DNA of 57,073 nt. Source: a virus. This document shows, in pieces, positions 26,449 through 49,861 of the stretch. The DNA lies in the IMG/VR virus record IMGVR_UViG_3300036861_000774. One strand, given 5' to 3'. The translations under genes were made by a program, and so were the position numbers. Position 1 is the stretch's first letter. The number at the start of each line of letters is the position of its first letter. A model generated the notes under the pieces. That model did not search any database and had not been told where the DNA came from. It saw nothing but the letters and a program-made list of their open reading frames with translations.

Positions 26449-27411
26449 ATGCCCTACGGATTCGCGGGATTTATCGGTTTTGCGGAGGAGACGACGTGGG
26501 GCACCCCCGTCGGTGTCAACTCGGGCGATTTCATCGAGGCGATGAGCGAGAACGTCACCCTCGCGATCGATCGCTATGAGGCCCGCAACATCGTCGGCCG
26601 GTTCGTGGAGGGCGACGACTTCGCGGGAACACGGCGAATCGTCGGCGATCTTGTGTTCCCGGCCCATCCGCTGCATCTGGGCCGGTTCCTGAAAGCCAAC
26701 TTCGGCAATATCTCGACGGTCACGGTGGTACTCTCCGGCTTCCTGTGGGAGGTGGACTTCCGCCCTGCCACAGCCGACGCGGCGGCGAACAATCCCCTGC
26801 CGCCTCTAACGCTGGAGATCTTTCGCGACGTTACGAGCTCCAACCGCTACGCCGGCGCGCAGGTCACGAAGCTGGGTCTGTCGGTGCAGCCGAACCAGGA
26901 CCTTCGGGCGACGGCGAGCATTCTCGCGAAGACGACCAGCATGGTGGCGAAGTCGACCCCGACGTATCCGGCGACTGGAACCAACCCGTTCGTGTTCGAC
27001 ACCGCGAGCGTGCAGATTGCTGGCAGCGCCGTGGATTACGTCGAATCGCTGGCCATCGAGTTCGACAACCAGCTCGAGGGCATCCCGGTCTTGAACAACT
27101 CGACTGACATCGCGAGGGTGCGACGGCGCGGTGCCCAGCAGATTCGGGTACGAGGCACGGTTGGGTTCGAGACCGCGGCGGAATATGGGCGCTTCACGCA
27201 ACAGAGCGAAGCCAACCTCGTCGCGTCCTGGGCCCAGACGAATTCGTTCGGGCTTGTGCTGCGGGTCCCGCGACTGATTTACACGGCGTTTCCGCTCGGA
27301 ATGCCAGGCGATCAACGGCTCACGGTGGCCTTCGAGGGCATGGGGCGCTTTGACGCGACGCTGGGCTTCGCGCTGCAGGCACGGCTGACGACCGTGAAGA
27401 GCAACTACTGA
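26449..27411 (+). CDS. Major tail tube protein
   Basis: A 320-aa protein immediately upstream of the frameshifted chaperone pair. Its N-terminus FAEETTWGTPV is typical of siphovirus tube proteins. Confidence 0.6.
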   Translation: MPYGFAGFIGFAEETTWGTPVGVNSGDFIEAMSENVTLAIDRYEARNIVGRFVEGDDFAGTRRIVGDLVFPAHPLHLGRFLKANFGNISTVTVVLSGFLWEVDFRPATADAAANNPLPPLTLEIFRDVTSSNRYAGAQVTKLGLSVQPNQDLRATASILAKTTSMVAKSTPTYPATGTNPFVFDTASVQIAGSAVDYVESLAIEFDNQLEGIPVLNNSTDIARVRRRGAQQIRVRGTVGFETAAEYGRFTQQSEANLVASWAQTNSFGLVLRVPRLIYTAFPLGMPGDQRLTVAFEGMGRFDATLGFALQARLTTVKSNY

Positions 27412-31555: not shown

Positions 31556-32032
31556 ATGGCGCGCACACTGTCAGCCACGGCCGTCGCAGCCCTCATGGCG
31601 CAAGAGACAAGTGAGGTGTTCCTCGGTCTTTTGACCTTGAGCCATCCGGATCTATCGCCGCCAATCCGAATCGTGAACGACACCGTAAACGTCACGAGCC
31701 GCGGGAATATATATATCGCATTTCCGTATCGTCTTGAGATGCCGTGGGAGCGAGACGACGAGCTCCCGCAAGTAACGCTCGAGATCGACAACGTGGACCG
31801 CACGATCGTCCAGGCTGTGCGGGCACTCTCGGCGCGCAAGGATCTGACGGCACTCTTCGAGGTCGTGCTGGCCAGTTCGCCGGACACTGTTGAACTGGCC
31901 GAGCTATTCACTCTGCGCGGCGCGGAGTACGACGCCCTCGTGGTCCGCGGCCGACTCCAGTTTGAAGATGTCCTGAACGAGCCGTTTCCGGCCGATTCGT
32001 TCACGCCGGCCACTACACCGGGAATCTTCTGA
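31556..32032 (+). CDS. Minor tail protein (DUF1833-like, gpL-analogous position)
   Basis: EVFLGLLTLSHPDLSPPIRIVND ... PQVTLEIDNVDR matches the DUF1833 pattern. Confidence 0.6.
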   Translation: MARTLSATAVAALMAQETSEVFLGLLTLSHPDLSPPIRIVNDTVNVTSRGNIYIAFPYRLEMPWERDDELPQVTLEIDNVDRTIVQAVRALSARKDLTALFEVVLASSPDTVELAELFTLRGAEYDALVVRGRLQFEDVLNEPFPADSFTPATTPGIF

Positions 32033-35000
32033 TGGTGCCCCCCTGGACCCGTGACTATATCGGCATCCCCTGGAAGAGCAAGGGGCGCGACCGAATGGGG
32101 TGCGATTGTCTCGGGTTGGCCCGGCTGGTCTGGGCAGAGCAATTCGGCCTGAAGATTCCGTCGTACGACGAATGCTATGCGACCGCTGAGGATCTTCAGG
32201 AAATCGCGCGCATCATCGCCGCCGAGAGTGGCTCCTGGCGCAAGGTTCCGACGGAGGATGCGCGGGCGGGCGATGGCGTGCTGTTACGGGTCCTCGGTAA
32301 CCCGAGTCACATCGGGGTCGTCGTGGAGCCGCCGACATTCTTGCATGTAGCGCCGGGGATCAACGCGTGCCTCGATGATTACACGCGCCCGCACTGGGCC
32401 AAACGCTTGCTCGGCATCCATCGCCACGAGGATCTCTTGAGTGAGGCGTCACCGGACGCTCTCGCCTCACGGGTTATCGCGCCGGCCGAGATTCTTGATC
32501 CGAACTCCACGCTCAGGAGCCTTATCCTTCCGCACCCCTTCTCGAACGAGCGCATCGACAGGACGATCAAGGTTGGCGCCACGCTCGCAGAGATTCTCGA
32601 GGATGCCGGGTTGCCCATCGGGCCGATGCGCGGATTCTCGATTCGCGTCTTTATCGACGGCCACGGGCCGATCCCTCGAGAGTGGTGGTCGCGCATCAAG
32701 CCGAAAGCGGGCCGGATAGTTACTGCGCGCATCATCCCGGCCAATGCGGGAGGGGGTGGCGGCAAGAACGTGCTCGGGATGGTTCTGATGGTGGCCGTCA
32801 TTGTCGTGGCGATCGTCGCTCAACAGTACTACGCGGTCGCTCTCGCAGGGGCGCTTGGGGTCTCGGCGGCCACGGCGAGCGCCCTCATTGGTGCCGGCGT
32901 CATCGTCGCAGGCGGCCTCCTGATAAACGCGATTGCGCCCCCTCAGACCCCGAGCCTCGGGAGACTGAGCGGTGCGGCGAGTAGTCGATCATCACTCGAC
33001 GGGTCAAGCCCGACGCTCTCTATTACCGGTACGCGCAATCAGATGAGCCCCTATGGCCCGATTCCGCGCGTGTATGGTCGACATCGCATGTTCCCGCCGC
33101 TTGGGGCATCGACGTTCACGGAAGTCGTCGGGAGTGATCAGTACTTGCGCATGGTCCTTGTGCCTGGCTATGGCCCGCTGAACATCACCACTATTCAAAT
33201 CGGGGACAATCCGATCCTAAACTTCCAGGGCGTCGAGGTCGAGATCCGCCAGGGTTATAGCAACGACACGCCGCTGACGCTCTACACGGATGACATACAC
33301 GAAGACCCGCTCTCCGTCGTGCTCACCCAGGCCGGAGGATCGGCCATCCGAACCACTCAATCTGATGCCGATGAGATCAGTGTCGATATTGTGTTCCCGA
33401 ATGGTCTCTTCGCGCTTGCATCCGATGGCACACGCCTGCTCGCTACGGTCGCCGTCACCGTCGAATATCGTCTCGTCGGCGCGACATCCTGGACGCTGCT
33501 CGCAGAGGACGGCGATTTCAACCCCAGTACATGGGTCTCGGGCGTGTTCCGACGCGGTCGCCGGTGGACTACCAACAAAGGACAGTATGAAGTCAAGCTG
33601 ACCCGGACGACGGCCGACTCAAGCGATTTGAAGATTCACGATCAAGTGTTTTGGTCGGCGCTACGGACGATCCGTCATCGGGACCCGATTACGAAGACGG
33701 GCCTTGCCAAGATCGGGCTTCGGATTAAAGCGACCGACCAGCTTAACGGTGTCGTTGATCAACTCAACTGCATCGTTGAGTCGATCATCCCGGACTGGGA
33801 TGCGGGCAGCGGGACCTGGATCACGCGCGCGACGAGCAATCCAGCCTCGATTTATCGGGACATTCTCCAGGGTTCTGCGAATGCTAGACCGGTCGCCGAT
33901 GCGCGTATCGACCTTCCGGGACTTCAGGCATGGCATGAGGCGAACGCTACGGCCGGCCGCTTCTTCAACGCCATCATCGACTTTCGGACCACCCTGTTTC
34001 AGGCGCTCCGGGATGTCGCGGCAGTCGGACGAGCGTCCTTTGCCATGAAGGACGGGAAATATTCCGTCGTTCGTGACATCCCTCAGACAGTGCCGATTCA
34101 GCATTTCACCCCAAGGAACAGTAAAGACTTCAAGAGCACCAAGGCGCTGCCGGATCTTCCTCACGCGTTCAAGGCGCGATTCATCAACCCGAACGCTAAC
34201 TGGCAGCAAGATGAGCGGATCGTCTATGACGATGGCTTCAACGCCGACGGGAGCGGCGGCTTGACGCCGGCGTCAAAGTTCGAGGTCCTCGAACTGCTCG
34301 GCGTGACGGACTCTAATCAGGCGTGGCGGGACGGTCGCTATCACATTGCGGTGGCCCGTCTTCGTCCCGAGACGTACGAGCTGATGACGGATATCGAGCA
34401 CCTCATCTGCCAGCGGGGCGATCTGGTGAAGGTCGTGCACGATGTGCCGCTCTGGGGGTTGGCGTATGGGCGGGTGAAGGCTGTCCAGGTCGACGGGAGT
34501 GGCAATGCCACCGGGGTGACGGTCGACGAGATCTGCACGATGGAGATCGGGAAGAGTTATGCGATGCGCTTCCGGCGATCGACCGGAGCCTCGGTCATGC
34601 AGCAAGTGATCACCGCCGCCGGCGAGCAGACGACCGTGACATTCACCGTAGCCATCTTGGCGGCCAGTAAGCCGGCCGTTGGGGATCTCTTCCTATTCGG
34701 TCTGCTCAATAGTGAGAGCGTGGACCTCCTCGTCCAAGGCATCGACCCTGGACCCGACTTCTCGGCGAAACTGACCCTGGTCGACGCCTCGCCGGCCGTG
34801 CACACGGCCGATACGGGCCCGATTCCGGCCTTCGAATCCCAGATCACGCAGCCAGCGCTGATCCAGCGCCAGTCGCCCGCGCCGATTATCGATAGCGTCG
34901 TGTCGAACGAAGATGTGCTGACGCGGGCCATCGATGGTGCGCTCGAGAGCCGCATCCTGGTCGGTTTGCACTTCGTTTCGACGACCGACGTGCCCGCGAT

Positions 35001-36237
35001 CTACATCCAGGCGCGCTATCGCGAGACCGCCGCTGCGGGAGCGGTCGAGAACAAGTGGATCAACCTCGCGCCGGTACCCGCCGAAGCGGGCCAGGTCTCG
35101 ATCGCGCCCGTGCAAGACGGCATTGCCTACGACATCCGGATACGTTCAATCGGGGGGCTGGGAGAAACATCCGAGTGGATCGATATTCTCAATCACACGG
35201 TGATCGGCAAGACATCCGCACCGCCAGACGTCTCGACGCTGTTCGTCATGGGCACACTACTCTCGTGGAGCTATCCGAATCCTCCGCGCGACTTCGCCGG
35301 GTTCCGGGTCAAGGCTAGGGCAGGGACGGCGAGTGTTTGGTCGGGCGCCAATCAGCTCCATGACGGCCTGATCACCCCGACCGAGCTCGACATCGCTGGC
35401 CGCCTCGGCGCCGGGACCCAGACGATCATGGTCAAGGCGGTGGACGTCGCCGAGAACGAGAGCGCGGGCGCGGCAGTCCTGACGCTCAATCTCGGCGACC
35501 CGACCATCGACAACATTATCCTCACGATCGACTACGGTGCACTCGGCTACCCGGGCACGATCGTCAATGGCTCGGTCGTCGGTTCGGAGATCCGCGCCAC
35601 GAGTGATGCGTCGCTCTACCTCCCGAAGGGCGAGGCCGCGTACCTGCCCGACGGCGCCGCACTCTACCTGCCCACGACGTACTTTGAGATGAGTTACGCG
35701 GCGGTCGTCATACCTGATGCCGATGCGGTACCGGCGGAACTTTCTGTCGCGGTCACGACGCAGGGGGAGGACTATTTCCTCGAGTTCCGCGGCCGCGGCG
35801 ACAACGCGCTCTATCTCCCGATCGGCAGCGATCTCTACCTGACGAACGGCGCCGGTCTCTATCTCGGCGGCCCAGAACCCTACCAGCCTTGGCCTGGGAA
35901 GCTCGAAGTCACGCGCGCGACCTACGATGTCCGCGCGACGGTCGCCGCCGGCGCCACGCAGGGGAAGATCACTTCCTTCGTGGCCAAGGTCGACGTGCCG
36001 GACATCGACGAGGTCCTGGAGGATGTGGCGCTCGCCTCCGGCGGCACGCGCCTGCCCATCACGAAGCACTACCGGAAGATCGCGCACGTGGGCGCCGATC
36101 TTCAGGACACCGGCACGGGGGCGGTGAGCATCCTCCAGCTCGACAATGATCCGATGCTCGGGCCGCTGCGCAAGGCGATCAACGCTGCCGGCGCCGGCGT
36201 CGCCGCCGTGGTCGACTTCCGCGTCAGGGGCTACTGA
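32032..36237 (+). CDS. NlpC/P60 peptidase fused to a gpJ-like host-specificity (central tail fibre) protein
   Basis: The N-terminus GCDCLGLARLVWAEQFG ... GDGVLLRV ... PSHIGVVVEP carries the NlpC/P60 Cys and His. A hydrophobic Gly/Ala/Val segment follows, and then more than 1000 aa typical of gpJ-size proteins. Confidence 0.8.
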   Translation: MVPPWTRDYIGIPWKSKGRDRMGCDCLGLARLVWAEQFGLKIPSYDECYATAEDLQEIARIIAAESGSWRKVPTEDARAGDGVLLRVLGNPSHIGVVVEPPTFLHVAPGINACLDDYTRPHWAKRLLGIHRHEDLLSEASPDALASRVIAPAEILDPNSTLRSLILPHPFSNERIDRTIKVGATLAEILEDAGLPIGPMRGFSIRVFIDGHGPIPREWWSRIKPKAGRIVTARIIPANAGGGGGKNVLGMVLMVAVIVVAIVAQQYYAVALAGALGVSAATASALIGAGVIVAGGLLINAIAPPQTPSLGRLSGAASSRSSLDGSSPTLSITGTRNQMSPYGPIPRVYGRHRMFPPLGASTFTEVVGSDQYLRMVLVPGYGPLNITTIQIGDNPILNFQGVEVEIRQGYSNDTPLTLYTDDIHEDPLSVVLTQAGGSAIRTTQSDADEISVDIVFPNGLFALASDGTRLLATVAVTVEYRLVGATSWTLLAEDGDFNPSTWVSGVFRRGRRWTTNKGQYEVKLTRTTADSSDLKIHDQVFWSALRTIRHRDPITKTGLAKIGLRIKATDQLNGVVDQLNCIVESIIPDWDAGSGTWITRATSNPASIYRDILQGSANARPVADARIDLPGLQAWHEANATAGRFFNAIIDFRTTLFQALRDVAAVGRASFAMKDGKYSVVRDIPQTVPIQHFTPRNSKDFKSTKALPDLPHAFKARFINPNANWQQDERIVYDDGFNADGSGGLTPASKFEVLELLGVTDSNQAWRDGRYHIAVARLRPETYELMTDIEHLICQRGDLVKVVHDVPLWGLAYGRVKAVQVDGSGNATGVTVDEICTMEIGKSYAMRFRRSTGASVMQQVITAAGEQTTVTFTVAILAASKPAVGDLFLFGLLNSESVDLLVQGIDPGPDFSAKLTLVDASPAVHTADTGPIPAFESQITQPALIQRQSPAPIIDSVVSNEDVLTRAIDGALESRILVGLHFVSTTDVPAIYIQARYRETAAAGAVENKWINLAPVPAEAGQVSIAPVQDGIAYDIRIRSIGGLGETSEWIDILNHTVIGKTSAPPDVSTLFVMGTLLSWSYPNPPRDFAGFRVKARAGTASVWSGANQLHDGLITPTELDIAGRLGAGTQTIMVKAVDVAENESAGAAVLTLNLGDPTIDNIILTIDYGALGYPGTIVNGSVVGSEIRATSDASLYLPKGEAAYLPDGAALYLPTTYFEMSYAAVVIPDADAVPAELSVAVTTQGEDYFLEFRGRGDNALYLPIGSDLYLTNGAGLYLGGPEPYQPWPGKLEVTRATYDVRATVAAGATQGKITSFVAKVDVPDIDEVLEDVALASGGTRLPITKHYRKIAHVGADLQDTGTGAVSILQLDNDPMLGPLRKAINAAGAGVAAVVDFRVRGY

Positions 36238-39627: not shown

Positions 39628-40065
39628 ATGGCGAGGTATGCGTGCGGAGTCTTGACGGGGGCCGGGTCGACCACCCTGCCGATCATTTCCTTGTACAGCA
39701 TTGCGGGCGTGAGCCCGTCCATTCGTGAGTGCGGGCTCACCAACACGACCGCGACCGCCGTCGCCCTGAAGCTCGTGTATCTGACGACCGCGGGTACCCA
39801 GGGCGCTGGCCTGACGGAGACGAAGTATCGCGATGGCGCGGCGGCGGCAAGCTCGACGGGCTTCACCACACACACGGTCGCCCCGACTCTGGGCAACGAC
39901 CTCGGCTATCGTGCCTCGCTCGGCGCGGCCGTCGGGGCGGGCGTGATCTGGACCTTCGGCGATCAGGGCATCACCCCGCCCGTCGGAACGGCGAACGGCC
40001 TCGGTGTCATCGTGGAAAACGGTACGGGGCAGGCGATCCAGGCCTACATCGTGTTTGACGAGTGA
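39628..40065 (+). CDS. Hypothetical Thr/Gly/Ala-rich beta-type protein (145 aa)
   Basis: GAGAGGAG lies upstream of ATG 39628. Confidence 0.5.
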   Translation: MARYACGVLTGAGSTTLPIISLYSIAGVSPSIRECGLTNTTATAVALKLVYLTTAGTQGAGLTETKYRDGAAAASSTGFTTHTVAPTLGNDLGYRASLGAAVGAGVIWTFGDQGITPPVGTANGLGVIVENGTGQAIQAYIVFDE

Positions 40066-40559
40066 TGTCTCTCGACGAATTGTTTCTGAAGCATGGCACG
40101 GACAAAAGCTCGACGGGCCACAACTATGCGCCTATCTACGAGCGCTATCTCCAGCCGGACACCATCACGTCACTCCTCGAGCTCGGGGTCGCTTCGGGCG
40201 CATCGCTCCGGGCGTGGCGGGATTGGTGTCCGCGAGCGCGGATTCACGGGATCGAGCGTGACGCTCACGTGGCTCTTGCTATCGAGGGCTGCGTGATTCA
40301 TTACGTTGATGCGACAGACAAGAGACTGACCGACTTCCTCGGCGTGTTCGACGTCGTGATCGACGACGCCTCCCATGAGGTCGCGCAGATCGAACGCGCC
40401 CTTGAACTGCTCTGGCCCCATCTCACTCCAGGGGGCTGGTACGTGATCGAAGACCTCGCGGCGCATGCCACTGTTGGAGGAGTGGCGCTCTTCCTCCGGC
40501 CGGGCGTGACCGAGTTGCATCGTCATGGCGAGATCCTCTTCGCCAGAAAGGCCGAGTGA
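40062..40559 (+). CDS. Class I SAM-dependent methyltransferase (sugar O-methyltransferase-like)
   Basis: HGTDKSSTGHNYAPIYERYL ... LLELGVASGASL ... VIDDASH ... LTPGGWYVIEDL. The GTDK...H-Y pattern is typical of methyltransferases found in glycan clusters. Confidence 0.7.
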   Translation: MMSLDELFLKHGTDKSSTGHNYAPIYERYLQPDTITSLLELGVASGASLRAWRDWCPRARIHGIERDAHVALAIEGCVIHYVDATDKRLTDFLGVFDVVIDDASHEVAQIERALELLWPHLTPGGWYVIEDLAAHATVGGVALFLRPGVTELHRHGEILFARKAE

Positions 40560-40807
40560 TGGATTACCGCTGTTTCAAGATCCGGGTCGGGCACGGAAGC
40601 CCCACGAACGACCACAACGGCGTGTCGGTGATGAAGACGTACTTCGACGTGTTCCTGGAGCCCGTCCATTCGCAAGCCGACACGTCAGGCGGGCTGGCGC
40701 AGATCCGCCTCGGCCTCTGGAACGACTGCGAGTTCAAGCAGGGCGAGGTGTACAGCATCGACCTCAGCGCGAAGCCGGTGACCTTCACGATGGTGCGCAA
40801 CGCATGA
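40556..40807 (+). CDS. Hypothetical protein (83 aa)
   Basis: Translationally coupled on both sides. Confidence 0.45.
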   Translation: MMDYRCFKIRVGHGSPTNDHNGVSVMKTYFDVFLEPVHSQADTSGGLAQIRLGLWNDCEFKQGEVYSIDLSAKPVTFTMVRNA

Positions 40808-41022
40808 TGACACTCCACGCCGGGAATGGGCATTCCGTTTCCGCCAGCGAGCAGTCGTGGATCGCCGGCCTCGTCATGCTGCTCTCCGAGCAGGAGCGCG
40901 AGCGCCTGATGGAGATCGTCTCGACGCGGATGGAGGTGCCGAAAATCAGCAACCTCGAAGTGGAGACGGAGATTTTGAAGAATGGCACACGGGTGAAGTT
41001 GATCGGGGGGTCGATGGTCTAA
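40804..41022 (+). CDS. Hypothetical protein (72 aa)
   Basis: ATGA overlap upstream and TAATG overlap downstream. Confidence 0.4.
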   Translation: MMTLHAGNGHSVSASEQSWIAGLVMLLSEQERERLMEIVSTRMEVPKISNLEVETEILKNGTRVKLIGGSMV

Positions 41023-43595
41023 TGCCGGGCCCTAACGACACCGACAGTTACGGCGGCTGGAAGGACTTTCCGATCAGTCCACCGGGGACCGGGAAATGGG
41101 CTGTCTCCCGGCTGGGTCGTCAATGGCTCTTCGTCACGCCCGAAGGCTACGGGCTTTGGATGAACGCTATCTTCGACGCCGAAGCGGATACGTCGACCGA
41201 CGAAGGCGCGATCTCCTATTCGGCTACGGCGGGCAACCGCATTCCCGTACTGCTCTTAAAATACGGGAGCATGGCGAACTGGGCGGCGGCGATCAAGAAG
41301 AAGTTGACGTACTGGGGTTTCAACACCCTCGGGGACTATACGAACTTCAACCTCTGGAGCCTGATTCCCTTCACCCACATCATTAGCATAACGATCAACG
41401 CGGCGAAAAACCGAGATTTCGGTAGCGGAACATATGGCTCGGCCAGTGCAACCCGGGACCTCACGTCGGGCACGCCGTCAACGTTCACAGGCTGGACGGG
41501 CTCACCATCGCCAGATGTTTATGCTCCGCAATACAAGACGTATGCGACAGGATACTGCGCTGACGACTCGGTCACGGGTCTCGGCACGGTGAATGGAGGA
41601 GGCCAGTTGATTGGCATCGCCACTGATGACATGGACTTCCTCTACGGCTTCAACCGGGCGACGACCGATGCCCTAAACGGGATGGCGACGTTCTCACCCC
41701 AGTGGCATATCGGCTACCTCGTCATGATCGGTCGCCCGGTCCAGGCCGAGGGGAACGTGTCGCAAGGCATCGGGCTCATCACCTACAACGATCCGATCCT
41801 CTACAGCAAGCGGGCTCTCCGCAACACGGTCGTAGGGCGCCATGGCACGCTCTCGGCGCTCGGCGTGACAGTCAGCACGAGCGGCACCGCCGCGACGTTC
41901 TCTGGCGTGCATGGCCTCGCCGTCGGGGATTTCATCACGATCACGAGCGGCCCCGAATCCGGGGACATCCGGCGCGTCAATGCCGTCCCGACGACGTCCA
42001 CGGCCACGCTCGAATGGGCCTTCTATGCAGATCAATCAGCGGGGACCTCGGTCTCCAAGATTCCGGCGACCGGGGCGTTGACGGCTCTCAATACCTCCTG
42101 GGGTTCAAGCTATACGACTTTCGCCGAGCAGGACATCGCCCGAACCGGTGATCCGTGGAACGAGTCGCGCTTCGTCGACGGCACGGCCGGCTGTAACTGC
42201 GTAAATGGAAATACGACGGTGACGCTCGACGCCGGAGTCCGCGTGCCTTTACGCACCGATGGCAGCGACGTCGACAAATTGTTCAAGATCATCAGCGGCC
42301 TTTCCGGAGGTGGGGATCTTCTGACGTCAATTGCGTCCGTCACGGATAGCCTGACGGCGGTTCTCCGGACGGCCCCCACCGTGACCGCCAAGCGTGACTA
42401 TCGGATCGTCCGCGAAGCCGCCGCTGGCTTCCCGACGCTCGAAGCTCTCTGGGGCAACGGGGTCCGACTCGATTACTCGGGGCTCGCGAAACTGACCGTG
42501 GTGGCCTACGACTCAAACAACATGAAGAACACGTTCACCGTGAAGGTGAACGGCGTCACCAAGGGTACGGATGACGGTGCCGGCAATATCACCGGCGCCA
42601 CAATCGCCTCGGGCACCATCAATTACACGACCGGGGCCGTGGGTTTCACCTTTACAGCGGGCAACGCCCCGCCGGATGGCGCTACGCTGACCTTCAACTA
42701 CACGGGCTCGGGCTATGGAATCGGCACGTCGTTCCTGGACGAAGATGGCCACAACTCTTGGATGCCCACGAACCATGACGGTCTGGAACCGTTTAGCGGG
42801 ACCACATCGGGCTTCCGGGCAGACCTCGACGCATTTCTGTTTGACTTTGCGAAGCAGTATGCCCGGGTCACATCCACGGCGATCAAGGCGCATTTCACGG
42901 GCCATCTCGTCTTCGGCCCCGTCACACTCGGCGCGCGCTCGCAGTCGGGGGCTCCACGCAAGGAAATCTATCAGGGACTCGCCACCTCCTTTGACGTTTT
43001 CAATGTCCAGGCGGCCGACCAGAATCAGCTCGACTGGGCGGTCACCTATCTCGGTGACAAGCCGTTCGTGACGTGGGAGGACATCACCGCGAATCCCGAC
43101 TCTCGGATGCGGGGCAATCCGCCGGGGGTTGATCCAAGCACTCCTGCGGACTGGACCAAGCACGGCCAGAAGCAACGTGGCCAGTCGTGGCAAGCCGTAG
43201 TAGCTAACATTCACACGTTGAAGAGCGAAGCCGGGGTGGCGAATATTGCTGGCTTCAAATGGTGGGAGTTCCGCGATCGACTCTCAGAGAGCGCAAATTA
43301 CGGGTTTCTGTCGATCGCCGACAACTGGTACGACGGCTGCGAGGCGCGGCGGCATGGATTAATGGTCAACGGTCTGGACGATCTCGCCTGTGGCGGGCCG
43401 ATGGCGGCCCTCATGCGCCCCCGCACGGATCGCTGGGGCTGGACGCTGATCGATGAACGCACCGATTTCGGCGACTTCATGTCGGCGGTGCTCTCGGCCA
43501 ACTTCTCGGCATATGCGGCCGTCGCGGCCAACGTCGGTATGCTAGGCACGCCGCCTCCAGGCGTCATCCATCGGTTCGCCCGGCGGTTTCGATGA
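41022..43595 (+). CDS. Large putative glycan-active tail-associated protein (glycoside-hydrolase-like ends, 857 aa)
   Basis: LTYWGFNTLGDYTNF and the C-terminal FKWWEFRDRLSESANYGFLSIADNWYDG resemble TIM-barrel glycosidase signatures. The middle is Thr/Gly-rich and Ig-like. This is a weak call. Confidence 0.4.
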   Translation: MPGPNDTDSYGGWKDFPISPPGTGKWAVSRLGRQWLFVTPEGYGLWMNAIFDAEADTSTDEGAISYSATAGNRIPVLLLKYGSMANWAAAIKKKLTYWGFNTLGDYTNFNLWSLIPFTHIISITINAAKNRDFGSGTYGSASATRDLTSGTPSTFTGWTGSPSPDVYAPQYKTYATGYCADDSVTGLGTVNGGGQLIGIATDDMDFLYGFNRATTDALNGMATFSPQWHIGYLVMIGRPVQAEGNVSQGIGLITYNDPILYSKRALRNTVVGRHGTLSALGVTVSTSGTAATFSGVHGLAVGDFITITSGPESGDIRRVNAVPTTSTATLEWAFYADQSAGTSVSKIPATGALTALNTSWGSSYTTFAEQDIARTGDPWNESRFVDGTAGCNCVNGNTTVTLDAGVRVPLRTDGSDVDKLFKIISGLSGGGDLLTSIASVTDSLTAVLRTAPTVTAKRDYRIVREAAAGFPTLEALWGNGVRLDYSGLAKLTVVAYDSNNMKNTFTVKVNGVTKGTDDGAGNITGATIASGTINYTTGAVGFTFTAGNAPPDGATLTFNYTGSGYGIGTSFLDEDGHNSWMPTNHDGLEPFSGTTSGFRADLDAFLFDFAKQYARVTSTAIKAHFTGHLVFGPVTLGARSQSGAPRKEIYQGLATSFDVFNVQAADQNQLDWAVTYLGDKPFVTWEDITANPDSRMRGNPPGVDPSTPADWTKHGQKQRGQSWQAVVANIHTLKSEAGVANIAGFKWWEFRDRLSESANYGFLSIADNWYDGCEARRHGLMVNGLDDLACGGPMAALMRPRTDRWGWTLIDERTDFGDFMSAVLSANFSAYAAVAANVGMLGTPPPGVIHRFARRFR

Positions 43596-44074: not shown

Positions 44075-44764
44075 ATGGCGCGCGAGTTCACGACGACTAC
44101 GGATCAGGTTGCCTTTACCAGTGATGCCGGGCTGAACATCACCGGCGACATTACCATCTATGCATGGATCTATCTGAACGCGGGAGCGGTCTATCACGAA
44201 CTCGTCGCGAAGATGGCGACCAATCGCGGGACCGATGTCCCCTATCTCTTCCGGACCACGAACGCGAATCCTCCTGTTCTCTTCTTCTCGCGGGCGCACG
44301 CATCGGCTCCGGCTTCAGCCAGTTCAACCGGAACGATTTCAATCGGGGCATGGCATTGGGTGTGCGTGACCCATGACGGAACCACGGCGACGTTCTACAT
44401 CGATGATCCCGCGACCGCTGATAGTTCGCCCGGACTGAACCTCATCCCGACGACGACAACCGACGATATGACGATTGGAGAAGGCGAGGGGAATCTTGGG
44501 GGGAATTGTCGCATCGCCTGGGTCGGCATTCATACCGCTGTTCTGGGAGCGGATGATCGCGCGACCGCCAAGAATGAAGGCGTCGTTTCGACCAGCGGGA
44601 TTCTCGGATGCCAGCTCGGGTCGGACCCGGAGCCGGATACCCTCGGAAGTCGCTCCGGCACGGTGACGGGAAGCACCGTCATCGATGGACCACCCGGCGT
44701 TCCGGCTGGGGCGCCGCCCTCCCCAACCATCATCGGCGTCCTGTCGAGCGGCCTCCGCTGGTAG
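44075..44764 (+). CDS. LamG / concanavalin-A-like lectin domain protein
   Basis: GDITIYAWIYLNAG ... LVAKM ... GAWHWVCVTHDGTTATFYIDD fits the Laminin_G_3 pattern. Confidence 0.6.
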   Translation: MAREFTTTTDQVAFTSDAGLNITGDITIYAWIYLNAGAVYHELVAKMATNRGTDVPYLFRTTNANPPVLFFSRAHASAPASASSTGTISIGAWHWVCVTHDGTTATFYIDDPATADSSPGLNLIPTTTTDDMTIGEGEGNLGGNCRIAWVGIHTAVLGADDRATAKNEGVVSTSGILGCQLGSDPEPDTLGSRSGTVTGSTVIDGPPGVPAGAPPSPTIIGVLSSGLRW

Positions 44765-44999: not shown

Positions 45000-45710
45000 A
45001 TGGCCGTCTCACCTGACGTCGCGACCGAGTCACATACTGGGACGGCAGGATCGGCGAGTGAAGCCTCCTTCTCGTGGTCGCACACCGGGGCGGCCTCCGG
45101 CGTCAAGGGCGTGCTCGTGTTCACCTTCGTCAATGCGAATGCGAATGACGCCCTCGGCGTCACCTATGGCGGCGTGCAGATGGCCCCCGTCTCGGGCGGG
45201 CGAGCCGTCGACACGGTGACTGAGCCCGGGGACTGCAAAGCCTGGTTCCTCAGTACCGGCGTACCGCAAGGGACGAAGACGGTTGTCGTGACTCGAAACA
45301 ACAACGCCAATGTGATGTACGCCGTGGCCTGCACGGTCCTGGCGGCTTCCAACATGGACACGGACGTCCATACCGCTGGCATCGTGCTTGTGCAAGAGGA
45401 CAACACGCTGGCCGAGCAGAGCGTGACGGACGGTTCGCCTGGCTCGAATAGCTTGCGCTATGCCGGCGTCAATTCGGGGCTGGCCACGCCACCCGCGCAG
45501 GGCGCCAGCTCCACGGCGTTGCAGAGTATCGACTTCACGTCGCGGGGCTGCGCGGTCGTCCGCGAGACGACCGCGGGGCAGGGGGCTCGCTCCGTAGGAT
45601 TCTCCTCCGGGACGAGCGACGACGTCGCGGCGGTCCATCTCGCCGTCAAAGAGATCGCGCAATCGCTTCCGACGCCTGACCGACACATGGCGCCGATGGT
45701 CCCTGAATGA
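45000..45710 (+). CDS. Hypothetical protein (236 aa)
   Basis: The ORF has ATGA coupling to the repeat protein. Confidence 0.5.
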   Translation: MAVSPDVATESHTGTAGSASEASFSWSHTGAASGVKGVLVFTFVNANANDALGVTYGGVQMAPVSGGRAVDTVTEPGDCKAWFLSTGVPQGTKTVVVTRNNNANVMYAVACTVLAASNMDTDVHTAGIVLVQEDNTLAEQSVTDGSPGSNSLRYAGVNSGLATPPAQGASSTALQSIDFTSRGCAVVRETTAGQGARSVGFSSGTSDDVAAVHLAVKEIAQSLPTPDRHMAPMVPE

Positions 45711-47767
45711 GGTTCCTCTATGGCGTGCCGCGAACGCCAGACGTCACGCCACCCTCGCGGTTCGTCAAGATTCCGACGCCGATCCCTCTAGCAGGCAAGC
45801 CGTACCGGATCATTGCCCCGCTCAAGCCGGACCCGGATCGCATTCTCCGGTCGACGTTGATCGGCCAAGTGCTCCTCCCGATCCCGGCGTTGTTGTTCCT
45901 AAAGCCGCTCAAGGCGGTCGCCCAGCCGATCGCGACCGTAGCCGCCTCTGCGCTCCTCACGTTCACCCTGCCCGCGGCCCCGCAAGTCACGACGGTCCCG
46001 AAGCCGCTGACCGCTGTCGTCCAATCAGCCGAGGATGCCCTTCGCCCGACGCGCCTGTTTGGCTCCGCGCCGGAGCCCGGCCTTCCGAATCTCCTGTTCC
46101 AGCGCCCGCTGGCCGGGATTCCACAGCCCGACATCGTGGTGCGGGCGCCCGCACTTGTCAGCGTGCCGGTTGCGGAGCGGACGCCGCTCTTCTTGCGCCC
46201 CCTGGTGGGCGTCGATCAGCCGATTCCATTCGTCGGGCCGCCGAGTCTCATCACAGTTCGATTCGCCGATCTGATTCCGCCAACCCGCCTCTTCGGCGTC
46301 GAGCAGCCGCCGTTTGTCAACCCGCCGTCCCGACTCCTTCAGGTGCCGGTGGCAGAGACCCCGCCGTCGTTCCCGGACCTCCTTTTCTTCCGTCCGCTCG
46401 CAGGGGTCCTCCAGCCCGAGCCGGGACTGCGATCGATCTCGCTGCTTGTCGGCGGGCGGTTGCCGTTCACGGCGGCCCCTCTTGATCTCCTCTTCCAGCG
46501 GCCCCTGCAAGGCCGCCCGGTCGATCTACCCCAGGCGTCGGCTCCCGCGATCATTCGGGTGCCCTTCGCGGAGGCGGTGCCGACATTCCTCCGTCCACTC
46601 CGCGGGCTGTGCATTGAGCCGGAACCAGAGTTCGGCTCGGTTGTTCTCTTCGGACTTGAGCCAGACCGCGATGTGTTGTTCCTCCGGCCGCTCCAGGGCC
46701 GGCCCGCGCACTTCCCGCTGGTCGCCGATCCGCCGCGGATCATTCAAGTGCCCTTCGAAGTCCCCCTGCCGCCGCTCGACATCCTGTTTCAGCGCCCGCT
46801 GGCGGGGATTGTTCAGCGCCCGGTCGTGGTCCGGCCGGCCTTGCTGCTCCAGGTCCCGTTTGCGGAATTACCGCCCCAGAAGCCCCTCATCGGTATTCTG
46901 CAGGCACCGTTCCCCGTCGATCCCTCGCGGATCATCGGGGTGCCCTTTGCAGTGGCCGAGCCGCCGATTAATATCGGCTTCCAGCGCCCGCTCGTCGGAA
47001 CGATTCAGCCCGAGGTCCTCGTTCCATCCCCGCGACTCCTCCGTGTTCCGTTCGCTGACCTGATCCCATTCCGCCTCATCGTCGCGGGCCTGGACCAACA
47101 GCCCCTCATCACTGGTCTATCGAGAATCCTTCGGGTGACGTTCCCGGACGTCACGACTCCGGCGTTCGATGTTCTCTCTCAGCGTCCGCATCAAGGGGTG
47201 GCCCAGCCGGACATCGTCGTCTCACCGTCCTCACTGGTACAGGTTCCCTTTGCGGAGCGGATCCCGCTCTTCCTTCGCCCTCTGGTGGCCATCGTTCAGC
47301 CCGATGTCGTTGTGCCGCCATCGGGTATCGTCCGCGTGCCCGACGCAGAGCTCGTTCCGTTCCGCCTGGTCCTGCCAGGCATTGTGCAAGCGCCTTTCGT
47401 CACCGATCCCTCGCGGATCATCCGGGTACCGTTTGCGGTGCCGTTCATCCCGATCAACGTCTTGTTCCAGCGGCCGCTCCAGGGGATTCCGAAAGCGCCC
47501 TTCGTCGTATCGGCGCCCCTCATCATTCACGTTCTCTTTGCCGAGCGCACGCCGCCGCCGCGAGCGATGCGGGGCATCGAGCAGGCCCTCATTGAGGTCC
47601 GGCTACCGACGATCATTCCCAAGTGGCCGCTGGCCTCGGCGGCGCGGTTGCCTGATGTGATCATCGGGAGTGCGCCGAATCTGCTGGCCCGTCGGACGGC
47701 GGTCTCGCTCAATCCTGACCGCCGCGCTCCCTCATTGAATCCGCGGAGGACAGCCCCCAATGTGTGA
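45707..47767 (+). CDS. Proline-rich protein built from about 16-17 degenerate repeats of about 31-33 aa
   Basis: The recurring unit is LFxRPLxGxxQPxxxVxxPxxxxVPFAExxP. Examples: LLFQRPLAGIPQPDIVVRAPALVSVPVAERTP and LSQRPHQGVAQPDIVVSPSSLVQVPFAERIP. Three-unit blocks show a higher-order super-repeat. Confidence 0.7.
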   Translation: MRFLYGVPRTPDVTPPSRFVKIPTPIPLAGKPYRIIAPLKPDPDRILRSTLIGQVLLPIPALLFLKPLKAVAQPIATVAASALLTFTLPAAPQVTTVPKPLTAVVQSAEDALRPTRLFGSAPEPGLPNLLFQRPLAGIPQPDIVVRAPALVSVPVAERTPLFLRPLVGVDQPIPFVGPPSLITVRFADLIPPTRLFGVEQPPFVNPPSRLLQVPVAETPPSFPDLLFFRPLAGVLQPEPGLRSISLLVGGRLPFTAAPLDLLFQRPLQGRPVDLPQASAPAIIRVPFAEAVPTFLRPLRGLCIEPEPEFGSVVLFGLEPDRDVLFLRPLQGRPAHFPLVADPPRIIQVPFEVPLPPLDILFQRPLAGIVQRPVVVRPALLLQVPFAELPPQKPLIGILQAPFPVDPSRIIGVPFAVAEPPINIGFQRPLVGTIQPEVLVPSPRLLRVPFADLIPFRLIVAGLDQQPLITGLSRILRVTFPDVTTPAFDVLSQRPHQGVAQPDIVVSPSSLVQVPFAERIPLFLRPLVAIVQPDVVVPPSGIVRVPDAELVPFRLVLPGIVQAPFVTDPSRIIRVPFAVPFIPINVLFQRPLQGIPKAPFVVSAPLIIHVLFAERTPPPRAMRGIEQALIEVRLPTIIPKWPLASAARLPDVIIGSAPNLLARRTAVSLNPDRRAPSLNPRRTAPNV

Positions 47768-47776
47768 GGTGCTCTG

Positions 47777-48094
47777 ATGGCAACGACAGATCTCACGACC
47801 GGATGGACGGCACCGATCGATCACCAGCTCCTAGCAAATGACATCCCACTCGACGTGACGGGTATGACGGTTGAGCTCGTCCTCACTGATCGTAACGGTG
47901 TGGCCATCGACACGTCCGGCGATATCACCGTCGAAGACGCCGCGACCGGGAAGGTGCGGTACAACCCGGACCCCGCGGATATCGACCACACGAGGGAACC
48001 GTATACGTGTCACTGGAAGGTCACCGACGGCGGCGGTAAGGTCGCTTATTTCCCGAACGGCGGGCCGGACGTGTACCGGATCTTTAAGGCATGA
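47777..48094 (+). CDS. Ig-like (BppU N-terminal-like) domain protein
   Basis: LDVTGMTVELVLTDRNG ... GKVRYNP ... YTCHWKVTDGGGKVAYFP fits the pattern of phage Ig-like receptor-binding accessory domains. Confidence 0.45.
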   Translation: MATTDLTTGWTAPIDHQLLANDIPLDVTGMTVELVLTDRNGVAIDTSGDITVEDAATGKVRYNPDPADIDHTREPYTCHWKVTDGGGKVAYFPNGGPDVYRIFKA

Positions 48095-48348
48095 CCGACG
48101 TTCCCAAGAACGGCACTCGCTGGACGATCCTCGCGATGCTCGTCTTCGTGGCGAGCACGTTCATTGGCGGCTATACCTTCATTAATGCCAACTTCGTGAC
48201 GCGCCGGGAGTTCGATGAAGTGAAGATGGAGCAGGCGCGCCGCACGCCGATCGTCTACGGATCCATCAACACGACAGCCTTCGAATTGGTTGAGATCAAA
48301 CGGCGCTTGGAAATCATCGAGTCTCTACTCCGAAAGGAGCGGCGGTGA
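48091..48348 (+). CDS. Single-pass membrane protein (85 aa)
   Basis: Transmembrane segment WTILAMLVFVASTFIGGYTFI followed by a charged coiled-coil tail. Confidence 0.5.
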   Translation: MTDVPKNGTRWTILAMLVFVASTFIGGYTFINANFVTRREFDEVKMEQARRTPIVYGSINTTAFELVEIKRRLEIIESLLRKERR

Positions 48349-48638
48349 AGGCGTTCGTAGTGGGGCTCGCCAGCGTCAATTTGCTGCTCGTGCTCGTCAC
48401 CTGGTACTACTACTTCCGGGTGTGGTGGGCGACCAGTGGGGACTTCGAGGGCGCCGTGCCTTTTCACGTCGTCATGGTTGGTCTCTCCTACGTCATCTTC
48501 GCCGGCTTGGCGCTGGAGCATGTCGACGGTTGGCGCGGCCTGGCAACCCTGTTCGCCTATGCGATGGCGACCGGCTCTTTGGCCTGGGTGCTGTATTACG
48601 AGCGCATGCGGTTTCTGACACTGCGGAGGCTATCGTGA
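48345..48638 (+). CDS. Multi-pass membrane protein, holin candidate (97 aa)
   Basis: Three to four hydrophobic segments: FVVGLASVNLLLVLVTWYYYF, FHVVMVGLSYVIFAGLAL and LFAYAMATGSLAWVLYY. Confidence 0.5.
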   Translation: MKAFVVGLASVNLLLVLVTWYYYFRVWWATSGDFEGAVPFHVVMVGLSYVIFAGLALEHVDGWRGLATLFAYAMATGSLAWVLYYERMRFLTLRRLS

Positions 48639-48802
48639 GAGAGATCCTCGTCGCCGAGCCGACGCTTGTTCGGCATTGTCCCTACTGCGGGGCGGAGATC
48701 ATCGGAGACCGGATGTGTCTGGTCCATCTGATCGTCGATGATGAGTGGGCGGCGGGCAATCGAGCGATGTGCGCCTTCCTGCACCGGAGGAGGGAAGAAT
48801 GA
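48635..48802 (+). CDS. Small CxxC protein (55 aa)
   Basis: GTGA overlap. Contains CPYCGAEI. Confidence 0.35.
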   Translation: MREILVAEPTLVRHCPYCGAEIIGDRMCLVHLIVDDEWAAGNRAMCAFLHRRREE

Positions 48803-49152
48803 GAAAGACACTGGTCGCCGCGCTGCTCTGCTGGACCGTCGTCGCCGAGCCCGGCCGTGTTCTCGACGGCGATACCTTCGACGCGAAGCTCTGGATCTGG
48901 CCCGCGATCTACACGCTCGACAAGGTGCGCGTGCTGGGCGTGGACACGCCGGAGATAACTGGCGGCACGCCAGAGACGCGGGCTGCCGCCCAAGCGGCGA
49001 AGGCGTTCACGGCCGCATGGCTCGCGAAGGGCGAGATCTTGGTCGAAGTGTGTAAAAGAGACAGCTTCGGCCGGTTGCTTGGAAGAGTAACTCGACAAGG
49101 TGAAGATTTAGCCGATGCGCTGATAAAAACCGGAATGGGAGTGCCGCGTTGA
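48799..49152 (+). CDS. Secreted staphylococcal-nuclease-like thermonuclease
   Basis: Signal-like MRKTLVAALLCWTVVA. SNase motifs: VLDGDTF ... VRVLGVDTPE ... DSFGRLLGRV ... DLADALIKTGMG. Confidence 0.75.
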   Translation: MRKTLVAALLCWTVVAEPGRVLDGDTFDAKLWIWPAIYTLDKVRVLGVDTPEITGGTPETRAAAQAAKAFTAAWLAKGEILVEVCKRDSFGRLLGRVTRQGEDLADALIKTGMGVPR

Positions 49153-49427
49153 CCGTCGAGCGGCCCGTCGGAATGCCAGATTACATGCGGCCGGATTTGG
49201 ACCTGGGCGGCGACGTCTATGTCGAATTCACGCATTGGTCGAAGGAGCATCACCCCGATGCGCCGGATCCAGCCGGCGGCCTGCTTTGGCGTCCTGAGAA
49301 CGAACGCTTCGGGCGCCCGATCTGGACGCTCAGCGCCATGGAGCCGCTCGATCTCGCGCCGTCTTTTCTCTGTCACTGCGGCTTCCACGGATTCATTCGG
49401 CAAGGGCGATGGGTGTCGGTGTCATGA
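49149..49427 (+). CDS. Hypothetical protein (DUF6527-like C-terminus)
   Basis: LAPSFLCHCGFHGFIRQGRW. TTG start with TTGA overlap. Confidence 0.35.
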   Translation: MTVERPVGMPDYMRPDLDLGGDVYVEFTHWSKEHHPDAPDPAGGLLWRPENERFGRPIWTLSAMEPLDLAPSFLCHCGFHGFIRQGRWVSVS

Positions 49428-49861
49428 ATCTCCACCTCACCCGCAAGTGGTTCACCGATCACTCGACCATCGGCGAGTTGATGCTCGATGGGAAGTGGGA
49501 GTGTCTGGTTCTGGAGCCCGCAGCGAAGGGCGAGCACCCACGCATCCCGACAGGCCGCTACCGTGTCGTCCTCACGCCCAGCGGCCGCGCGAAAGCTGGG
49601 ACGCTCTGGTCACCGCGGCCTGATCACGCGCTGCCGCTGCTGCTCGATGTGCCAGGGCGCGAAGCGATCCGCGTCCACGCGGGGAATTCATCGAAGGACA
49701 CCGAGGGCTGCCTACTCGTTGGTGAGCGCCGCTTCGCAGACACACTCGACGGCAGCCGGATCGCGCTCATCGCCCTGATGGCGGAGCTCGACATGGGCCT
49801 GGCCGATGGAGGCGAGGTCTACATCACGATCGTCGATGCTGACGAAGGGGTGCTCGCATGA
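49424..49861 (+). CDS. DUF5675-like protein (YkuD-like fold suspected), candidate cell-wall enzyme
   Basis: STIGELMLDGKWECLVLEP ... RIPTGRYRVVL ... LLLDVPGREAIRVHAGNSSKDTEGCLLVG fits the DUF5675 pattern and has a His ... Gly-Cys motif. Confidence 0.55.
   Translation: MNLHLTRKWFTDHSTIGELMLDGKWECLVLEPAAKGEHPRIPTGRYRVVLTPSGRAKAGTLWSPRPDHALPLLLDVPGREAIRVHAGNSSKDTEGCLLVGERRFADTLDGSRIALIALMAELDMGLADGGEVYITIVDADEGVLA

Follow-up and report, generated by a model that had tools for sequence, protein, structure and literature searches.

The gene at positions 45707..47767 (+ strand, ATG start, stop codon included) of a 57,073-nucleotide viral DNA, IMG/VR record IMGVR_UViG_3300036861_000774 (the whole of this stretch is termed the window), encodes a proline-rich protein of 686 amino acids (aa) built from degenerate modules of about 32 residues. 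As far as can be judged from sequence, the protein represents a new repeat family within a known general kind, the repetitive phage surface appendage protein. The repeat gene closes a cassette that also encodes a jelly-roll protein, an enzyme-like protein and a lectin, and that lies in structural-gene neighbourhoods of very different phages. We favour, at a probability of roughly 0.45, that the repeat protein is a virion-surface, fibre-like accessory of the phage adsorption apparatus.

A first unit profile, made from anchored units of five homologues, placed ~18 units at aa 63-637 of the window protein. A non-circular unit hidden Markov model (HMM), rebuilt from the other family members only with the window protein excluded, identified 19 units with a full score of 259 bits, whereas 200 shuffled sequences of the same composition contained on average 0.085 units and at most 2. 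Because the 19 units were recovered by an HMM derived from other proteins and the shuffles never exceeded 2, the repeat is real. Iteration of the HMM yielded 17 significant units of 27-36 aa each, extending from aa 63 to ~650; it also detected a partial unit ahead of them (aa 4-30) and an irregular one at aa 294-323. The initial annotation of the window had counted ~16-17 degenerate repeats, in agreement with this result, but had the array begin near aa 120 rather than at the actual start near aa 63.

The core array of 32-aa units delineated by the unit HMMs spans aa 130-618 (46094..47560, +). The unit consensus, derived from 147 units of 15 proteins, is LFQRPLAGIVQPVEEVRPSRIIRVPFADPPPP, and the key motif parts of the module are LFQRPLxGxxQ ... 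PSxIIRVPFAD ... PP. Phe at unit position 2 occurs in 100% of the units that cover this position, followed by Leu at position 1 (92%), Ser or Pro at position 19 (88%), Pro at position 5 (85%), Gly at position 8 (80%), Leu at position 6 (76%), Gln at position 11 (74%), Arg at position 4 (71%), Pro at position 25 (63%), Val at position 24 (60%) and Asp at position 28 (52%). Since unit length varies, ungapped autocorrelation produced only modest peaks (z up to 5.2 vs 4.4 in shuffles), dominated by offsets of 31, 65, 162, 228 and 360, and an HMM is needed to follow the array. No offset of 15-16 residues is found among the 30 strongest autocorrelation peaks, and the idea of a 16-residue half-unit sub-repeat, as in a triple beta-spiral, was rejected; by eye only, LFQRPLAG resembles IIRVPFAD at an offset of ~20. 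Single repeat units serving as docking tags on other cassette proteins were also considered and rejected, as six-frame translations of the window and of the non-duplicate loci of relatives contain the 32-aa unit in no other ORF (open reading frame).

Pairwise unit scores sort the modules into three flavours, with A units starting at aa 130, 360, 491 and 586, B units at aa 161, 425 and 521, and C units at aa 195, 391, 556 and, with a weak score, 459; the LFxRP head is missing from the C flavour. The three-unit super-repeat that had been proposed stands insofar as three flavours exist, but the ordered A-B-C triplet occurs only twice, at aa 130-225 (46094..46381, +; pairwise unit scores and alignment) and at aa 491-585 (47177..47461, +), and the order between the two triplets is A-C-B-C'. 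The second triplet is 48% identical to the first in amino acids and 62% in nucleotides.

The repetition resides in the protein rather than in the DNA. Tandem Repeats Finder reported no tandem repeat in the gene, and the gapless direct-repeat families have 62-80% DNA identity, with listed copies sharing short exact runs only; a DNA-level tandem repeat was thus rejected in favour of an ancient, protein-level repeat. In the relative P0002, four units are near-identical as protein while their synonymous sites are near saturation (proportion of synonymous differences, pS, 0.61-0.76) and non-synonymous differences are few; the ratio of non-synonymous to synonymous change (dN/dS) between similar paralogous unit pairs of this protein is 0.06-0.16. 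The unit copies are old, and purifying selection acts on the amino-acid sequence of each. Because the units share no long identical DNA, and because of the synonymous saturation in P0002, the gene is at present a poor substrate for homologous slippage and no current recombination hot spot. The suggestion that the repetitive gene varies in length by recombination therefore holds in one respect only, as unit number does differ among full-length members: the five closest proteins contain 14, 14, 15, 17 and 20 units (14-20 in the four closest relatives), and P0010 and P0012 were scored with fewer, more divergent units. Whole-unit insertions and deletions among P0002, P0003 and P0005 fall mostly in the N-terminal half, and alignment with the relatives places the additional units of the window protein in its C-terminal half. 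The repeats are positionally orthologous even between proteins only 33% identical.

All family members begin with the peptide M-x-x-LYPVPR. In the window protein this candidate anchor takes the form MxxLYGVPR and is followed by the partial unit (aa 1-30; 45707..45796, +); Y5, V7 and R9 are invariant in the five closest proteins, and no signal-peptide-like N-terminus was seen in the sequence. Unit 1 (aa 63-94; 45893..45988, +) carries the Ala/Val-rich hydrophobic segment IATVAASALLTF, which forms the sole helix in the AlphaFold model. The first unit of every member has its second half replaced by such a stretch, conserved as IAAVAASALIAF. A membrane anchor would call for a signal peptide or else for a hydrophobic helix no shorter than ~18 residues. 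The hydrophobic stretch at aa 68-88 comprises only ~15 residues, with a 19-residue-window hydropathy of ~1.3 in the window protein (hand calculation) and peaks of 2.0-2.4 in relatives; a transmembrane anchor seems unlikely here, as the segment of the window protein is too short and its hydropathy too low.

No other part of the family is as well conserved as an irregular signature unit at aa 293-333, FLRPLRGLCIEPEPEFGSVVLFGLEPDRDVLFLRPLQGR (46583..46705, +), in which invariant columns are dense between F294 and G331. Its pattern in all members is ...FLRPL..G.QP..PE(Y/F).S..LFGL(D/E)PE.D.LFLRPL.GR, and it can be recognised in the more distant members too. The C-termini, by comparison with relatives, are specific to lineage. 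The window protein ends with a last degenerate unit and a basic Pro/Arg tail (aa 619-686; 47561..47764, +); other lineages have beta-rich ends of ~40-55 aa (FVMILND or ...PVKVVI) or basic R..W(F/H)RSGG tails. P0010 (L010, 2436-4274) terminates in a fused globular domain of 95 aa, which in L011 (2644-2928) and L012 (4649-4861) is encoded separately, by a 94-aa gene that directly follows the repeat gene (E 4e-13 in a small database). This gene fusion links the repeat protein functionally with the downstream 94-aa product; the fused domain has no Pfam or PDB sequence match. A C-terminus like the T4 fibritin foldon, considered for P0004, was not supported, as a phmmer comparison of that C-terminus with PDB sequences retrieved no foldon-containing chain at E<=10.

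The window protein contains one Cys, one Trp, 17.9% Pro, 13.4% Leu, 11.1% Val and 4.5% Gly. Its single Cys and its richness in proline had been recognised initially, whereas the accompanying statement that it has few charged residues was mistaken: Asp, Glu, Lys and Arg make up 110 of the 686 residues (16%; 25, 20, 9 and 56, respectively), Arg alone accounts for 8.2%, and the net charge is +20, or 0.03 as a mean per residue. The extreme composition is due in part to GC content, since lower-GC members contain 11-12% proline and have a grand average of hydropathy (GRAVY) near 0, and the motif persists in them. The strand is C- and T-rich at 46-48 kb (GC skew -0.12 and AT skew -0.22 at 46001..48000); the many Pro (CCN), Leu (CTN) and Phe (TTY) codons of the repeat gene account for this, not a replication feature.

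AlphaFold2 was applied to the monomer with a shallow alignment of five sequences. The whole chain was modelled with a mean predicted local distance difference test score (pLDDT) of 27 and a predicted template modelling score (pTM) of 0.15, without strands and with one helix at aa 68-83. A solenoid, which the initial annotation had entertained beside a repetitive fibre, is not borne out, as no regular structure was predicted and no Pfam profile of a beta-solenoid or right-handed beta-helix repeat (PbH1, pentapeptide, hexapeptide, LRR), or indeed of any repeat family, matched at E<=10. Because the alignment is shallow and only a monomer was modelled, the prediction may still leave room for an obligate oligomeric fibre; monomer structure prediction usually fails for interdigitated trimeric fibres. 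Leu, Val, Ile and Phe constitute ~38% of the window protein, GRAVY is +0.39, and by our own calculation the protein falls on the folded side of the Uversky charge-hydropathy boundary. Classical disordered proteins are less hydrophobic than this chain, which would for this reason be expected to fold on assembly, with itself or with a partner.

The family is small and metagenomic. A search of the protein collection returned an identical 686-aa repeat protein on record, and the closest relatives have 32-35% identity (E down to 6e-59). A word-indexed search of 5.8 billion proteins detected four relatives at 32-35% identity, and an exhaustive profile search of 1.84 billion cluster representatives brought the family to 13 proteins (clusters) in all. 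All 13 are metagenomic, several of them from Hainich groundwater assemblies, and a metagenome scan added only short Hainich groundwater contigs. No relatives of the repeat protein were found in the scan of IMG/VR contigs or in 185,579 GTDB species genomes. Against 50,697 GenBank phage records, tblastn gave no match for the repeat protein or for the 145-aa jelly-roll protein and the 236-aa protein of the cassette (both described below), nor did megablast of 20 kb against GenBank phages. As had been anticipated from the sequence, the repeat belongs to no named family: Pfam has zero families at E<=10, PHROGs and NCBIfam have no match, and the best hit of the PDB sequence profile search, BcsH (E 0.92), was rejected as a relative, being at chance level. 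No description of the repeat or of the cassette was found in the literature.

The order of the cassette across relatives is a 145-aa jelly-roll protein, a protein of 82-87 aa, an enzyme-like protein, a concanavalin A (ConA)-like lectin, an optional protein of about 235 aa, the repeat protein and sometimes a small beta protein. In all eight loci examined the repeat gene lies behind the lectin, the enzyme and the 145-aa jelly-roll gene. The cassette of the window opens with the 145-aa jelly-roll protein (39628..40065, +), which keeps 68-73% identity from locus to locus where the repeat proteins share no more than ~33%; its equivalents are at 2730-3167 in L001, 1984-2421 in L003, 1083-1520 in L005, 232-666 in L010, 10001-10438 in L013 and 10001-10441 in L014. 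Identity stays at ~70% over contigs of 52-64% G+C, on which the other cassette proteins can barely be aligned, and the protein is represented by 1377 clusters in a large protein collection. It has no Pfam, PHROG or NCBIfam family. AlphaFold models it as an all-beta jelly-roll (pLDDT 92) with fold relatives among uncharacterised phage proteins in BFVD (template modelling score, TM, up to 0.80). Its PDB fold matches are weak (E >= 0.008, TM <= 0.44) and include jelly-roll capsid proteins, TNF, a turret (8qpg) and capsid cement proteins. The position of its structural neighbour in Pantoea phage LIMEzero was uninformative, this neighbour being probably an uncharacterised ORF at the genome end that is identified only by length. 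The jelly-roll protein is a candidate for the conserved hub of the cassette.

An 82-aa protein (40559..40807, +) is the homologue of the 87-aa cassette gene product of relatives (tblastn, 36-39% identity to L001, L003 and L005). The enzyme position is occupied in the window by a called gene for an 857-aa protein (41022..43595, +) that ends in the basic tail ...HRFARRFR and has no family match in Pfam, PHROGs or NCBIfam; in relatives it holds a polysaccharide lyase (L003, L010) or a right-handed beta-helix protein (L004, L005). In L012 (1792-2865) the same position carries a 357-aa protein that begins with a signal-like segment, continues with a poly-Pro/Thr linker and ends in a membrane anchor; it thus differs from the soluble lyase and beta-helix proteins elsewhere. 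The lectin of the window has 229 aa (44075..44764, +), contains a Laminin_G_3 domain (Pfam PF13385, E 7.8e-15) and ends ...PSPTIIGVLSSGLRW; cassette lectins are 213-247 aa in length, with a Laminin_G_3 match at E 5.7e-11 in L011. The 236-aa protein (45000..45710, +) is rich in Ser, Thr, Gly and Ala, ends MAPMVPE and has no family match in Pfam, PHROGs or NCBIfam. Equivalents of 234-239 aa are found in L001, L003 and L004, so that the protein is present in four of the eight loci and absent from the other four. Directly downstream of the repeat gene, the window encodes a 105-aa BppU_N-like small beta protein (47777..48094, +; Pfam PF10651, E 2.3e-6), which has no detectable relation to the product of the 94-aa downstream gene of L011. 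A methyltransferase gene and genes for proteins of 72, 160 and 70 aa are additionally interspersed in the window cassette.

The core of jelly-roll, lyase and lectin occurs without a repeat gene in L013 and L014. The cassette is thus best described as a mobile structural-accessory module, of which the repeat protein appears to be a rare optional last member. Its surroundings are structural: in L011, a T7-like podovirus, tail tubular A and B and internal virion protein genes lie directly downstream, an SU10-adaptor-like gene lies downstream in L001, and L003 has a collagen-like tail-fibre gene upstream. In the window the repeat gene is among the last of the late block, preceded by the tail tip gene and followed by lysis-like genes.

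BLAST between the upstream proteins of different loci detected no relation of their bodies; the C-terminal tails alone are alike. The lectins of the window, L001, L003, L004, L005, L010, L011 and L012 terminate in ...P.P......(G/S/A)(N/A/G/P)LRW-COOH (44720..44761 in the window), and the LRW tail is also found in L013, whose cassette has no repeat gene. The 235-aa proteins end in MAPM(V/I/M)P(E/A) or MAPVMSA (45687..45707 for the 236-aa protein of the window), and the proteins in the enzyme position have basic tails, QLRSG, SMRNI or NLRLG in relatives and ARRFR in the window. Several repeat proteins end in WFRSGG-type tails, which like the enzyme tails are basic and of (L/F)R(S/N/L)G(G) type. 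We infer that these C-terminal tails may be docking peptides. Because LRW is present in L013 without a repeat protein, it more probably docks on the very highly conserved jelly-roll protein, or at some other site of the virion, than on the repeats.

The stop codon of the 236-aa gene overlaps the ATG of the repeat gene in an ATGA, an arrangement noted from the outset for the window and repeated in L001, L003 and L004. In loci without the 235-aa gene, the lectin stop codon is located 3-6 nucleotides before the ATG of the repeat gene, and no Shine-Dalgarno sequence before the repeat gene is evident by eye. In view of the overlap or short spacing and the missing Shine-Dalgarno sequence, the repeat protein appears to be translationally coupled to its upstream neighbour. 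A programmed frameshift or fusion at the ATGA junction is unlikely, as no slippery pattern is visible by eye and ordinary termination-reinitiation coupling looks the likelier arrangement.

The conserved synteny with a lectin and a polysaccharide lyase or beta-helix protein argues for the fibre or adsorption-apparatus role that the initial annotation had put forward. These two precede the repeat gene in nearly every relative, and the fibre gene upstream in L003 and the tail tubular genes downstream in one relative fit the same role. The anatomy of the protein, with a conserved N-terminus, a variable number of units and small lineage-specific C-terminal domains, is of the fibre type. In such an appendage, the short conserved N-terminus (LYPVPR... 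and the Ala-rich helix) would anchor or oligomerise the chain. The body consists of ~17 modules of 32 residues, each conserved in its own right and too hydrophobic to remain unfolded when free in solution; it would become structured only through homo-oligomerisation or the binding of a partner, the number of modules would set the length or reach of the appendage, and the C-terminal end would be exchangeable between lineages. Produced by translational coupling with the preceding lectin-like gene, the repeat protein could act with the lectin and the glycan-cleaving enzyme in the binding and processing of host surface polysaccharide.

Viral and phage fibre shafts (the adenovirus and reovirus triple beta-spiral, PRD1 P5, T4 fibritin-type and collagen-like shafts) share with the repeat protein a short conserved N-terminus, a repeat body of variable copy number, an exchangeable small C-terminal domain and a structural, adsorption-related gene neighbourhood, and monomer prediction commonly fails for interdigitated trimeric fibres likewise. 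The repeat protein differs from them in having no sequence match to fibre families, a 32-aa unit instead of ~15 aa or G-X-Y, 4.5% Gly and irregular unit lengths. Collagen-like fibres consist of long G-X-Y runs with ~33% Gly; at its Gly content, the repeat protein has no Pfam Collagen match at E<=10. The triple beta-spiral shaft has a regular repeat of ~15-16 residues, in which the hydrophobic positions are fixed and Gly or Pro forms a turn, and is an obligate homotrimer of interdigitated chains, whereas the unit of the repeat protein is 32 aa (27-36) and lacks a 15-16 period. The repeat protein would work most like a fibre shaft but falls outside the collagen, triple beta-spiral, solenoid/LRR, foldon and TonB-like spacer classes.

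Several observations weigh against a fibre-like adsorption accessory. The units are irregular in length (27-36 aa) and some are without the LFQRP head, which is unusual in a geometrically regular shaft. The AlphaFold2 model, at pLDDT 27 and without strands, supports no fibre, solenoid or other fold. The cassette is common without the repeat gene, as in L013 and L014, and the repeat protein is therefore dispensable for cassette function. With 13 clusters the family is tiny and is absent from cultured phages, so that nothing is transferable from a characterised relative. In addition, a 'head protein' PHROG is matched in L013 by the product of a gene next to that of the jelly-roll protein, and the weak PDB matches of the jelly-roll protein include capsid turret and cement proteins. 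The alternatives considered below are not all mutually exclusive with a fibre-like accessory, and the question of capsid or tail concerns location only.

By analogy with known scaffolds, the repeat protein could be a multivalent docking scaffold, each 32-aa LFQRPLxG unit recruiting one partner (the 235-aa protein, the lectin or the enzyme) to create a brush of glycan-binding or glycan-cleaving heads. The first half of the unit is conserved in the manner of a binding motif, the repeat gene is always co-encoded and translationally coupled with genes for lectin-like proteins, and the potential partners are otherwise unrelated and conserved only in short C-terminal peptides (LRW, MAPMxPA and the basic enzyme tails). 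A precedent is the Streptomyces umbrella toxin, in which the degenerate repeats of UmbC bind adaptor-lectin spokes (bioRxiv 10.1101/2025.04.24.650519). Both the UmbC repeat ring and the cellulosomal scaffoldins, with their cohesins and dockerin-tagged enzymes, resemble the present case in combining a degenerate tandem-repeat protein with co-encoded lectin-domain and glycan-active proteins and short conserved terminal peptides on otherwise unrelated clients. The resemblance is one of analogy only, not of homology: the 32-aa, proline-rich units are far smaller than a cohesin, nothing ties them to the UmbC repeats, and the C-terminal tails of the clients are also present without the repeat protein. 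The LRW tail in L013 indicates that the docking site is not, or not solely, the repeat protein, the highly conserved jelly-roll protein is a more obvious hub, the 235-aa protein is missing from half of the loci, and no other cassette protein carries the unit. Such a scaffold is, on balance, unlikely.

A flexible, largely disordered proline-rich spacer or whisker, holding the C-terminal element off the particle, or an entropic bristle, in either of which the repeats would matter for length only, also strikes us as an improbable description. It would account for the pLDDT of 27 along the whole chain, for the proline content of 18% and for the variation of unit number and C-termini among relatives. 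TonB-type periplasm-spanning, extensin-like wall-spanning and disordered proline-rich spacers are likewise high in proline, are predicted to be extended and non-globular and have no confident AlphaFold structure. A TonB-like disordered spacer, in particular, would be expected to have a low hydropathy and/or a large net charge, to conserve few specific positions and to be under relaxed selection on its sequence. The repeat protein is of another character, with a GRAVY of +0.39 (~38% L/V/I/F), near-invariant residues within a long, position-specific unit (F2 100%, P5 85%, G8 80%), a dN/dS of 0.06-0.16 between paralogous units that points to purifying selection, and no evident membrane anchor or signal peptide. 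Given this hydrophobicity, unit conservation and selection, together with the positional orthology of the repeats at only 33% protein identity, a sequence-indifferent spacer is not expected.

The cassette is found in a lambda-J-type siphovirus as well as in a T7-like podovirus, whose tails differ greatly, and this raises the question of a capsid appendage, that is, a head fibre, turret or decoration module docking on the HK97-type capsid that siphoviruses and podoviruses share. The cassette of L011 sits where post-capsid genes lie in T7-like genomes (compare Pantoea phage LIMEzero), the jelly-roll protein weakly resembles capsid turret (8qpg) and cement proteins, and its neighbour in L013 is the one matching a 'head protein' PHROG. 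This location is nevertheless quite improbable, as the window cassette is 18 kb from the capsid gene and follows the gpJ-like tip protein, a collagen-like tail fibre is encoded immediately upstream in L003, and all PDB fold matches are weak, with E >= 0.008 and TM <= 0.44.

A broader reading, to which we assign a comparably small chance, extends to the cassette as a whole. It could constitute a modular cellulosome- or umbrella-like adsorption organelle, in which the jelly-roll hub takes up interchangeable lectins and enzymes via C-terminal docking peptides (LRW-COOH, R-S-G-G-type) while the repeat protein serves as a multivalent backbone, with 14-20 LFQRPLxG units to increase the number of heads displayed. 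If this were true, the cassette would be a plug-and-play host-range system common to siphoviruses and podoviruses.

That the repeat protein is a non-virion protein, either an assembly factor or chaperone for its neighbours or a host-directed late protein, is very doubtful. In the window and in L004, lysis-like small membrane proteins are encoded within one or two genes downstream; in L001 and L011, by contrast, the downstream genes are head-tail adaptor-like and tail tubular, not lysis genes. Neither a signal peptide nor a convincing transmembrane segment is found in the protein, its hydrophobic stretch measuring ~15 residues, and chaperones are not typically 500-760 aa long with 14-20 repeats under selection. 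A spurious long ORF, conceivable in a genome of 64% G+C with several long shadow ORFs in other frames, is for practical purposes refuted by protein-level homologues on contigs of 47-62% G+C, by strong purifying selection, by the conserved gene position and start-codon coupling and by the repeat profile, which in six-frame translations matches the annotated 45707..47767 frame only (344 bits), in support of the ORF as it had been called. The Arg/Ser-rich long shadow ORFs that overlap the repeat gene in other frames (46314..47063, +; 47169..47660, +; several on the minus strand within 45718..47796) are by-products of GC-rich, repetitive coding sequence.

If the repeat protein is a virion fibre, it would represent a new fibrous repeat of 32 residues, hydrophobic and proline-rich, that is invisible to profile libraries and to AlphaFold monomer prediction; if it is merely an optional spacer, it would amount to a well-documented orphan family of limited reach. 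The repeat gene has also led to a widespread and so far unannotated cassette, the jelly-roll protein of which occurs in >1,300 clusters. Receptor-binding proteins usually attach via a conserved N-terminal anchor. The cassette reverses this rule: its lectins and polysaccharide-degrading proteins, though unrelated, have conserved peptides in common at the C-terminus. Receptor-binding and depolymerase clusters, with their tailspike, lectin and fibre modules, have the same polysaccharide lyase or beta-helix and ConA-like lectin neighbours and the same place after the tail tip and before the lysis genes. The cassette differs from them in that its conserved attachment element is apparently C-terminal (LRW, MAPMxPA and basic tails) and in that its leading protein, the 145-aa jelly-roll, stays ~70% identical even between phages of very different kinds. 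The cassette crosses tail morphotypes. An understanding of its docking logic would help to predict and engineer host range in uncultured phages.

The window itself is, by its gene content, a siphovirus-like, lambda-J-type phage genome. Annotated genes comprise a helicase (5436..7970), the large terminase (14165..16042), the portal (17357..18760), a protease (19077..20609), the major capsid protein (21026..21994) and a tail protein (26449..27411). The lambda-J-like (gpJ-like) central tail fibre or tip protein of 1401 aa is encoded at 32032..36237 (+); near its N-terminus, at aa 13-130, it contains an NlpC/P60 peptidoglycan peptidase domain. The repeat gene and the 105-aa BppU_N-like gene are followed by genes for small membrane proteins, an SNase-like nuclease and a DUF5675 protein. 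They form a putative lysis or accessory region (48091..49861, +), with membrane proteins of 85 and 97 aa, a secreted SNase-like nuclease with a signal-peptide-like N-terminus (48799..49152) and the DUF5675 protein (49424..49861).

Two further loci of the window encode sugar- or methyl-transferring proteins. A 978-aa fusion of a GT4 glycosyltransferase, an S-adenosylmethionine (SAM) methyltransferase and a GT2 glycosyltransferase is located between the capsid and tail genes (22539..25475, +), and a 164-aa Methyltransf_24 gene is found inside the cassette (40065..40559, +). These glycosyltransferase and methyltransferase genes raise the possibility of glycosylated or methylated virion proteins, or of host glycan modification.

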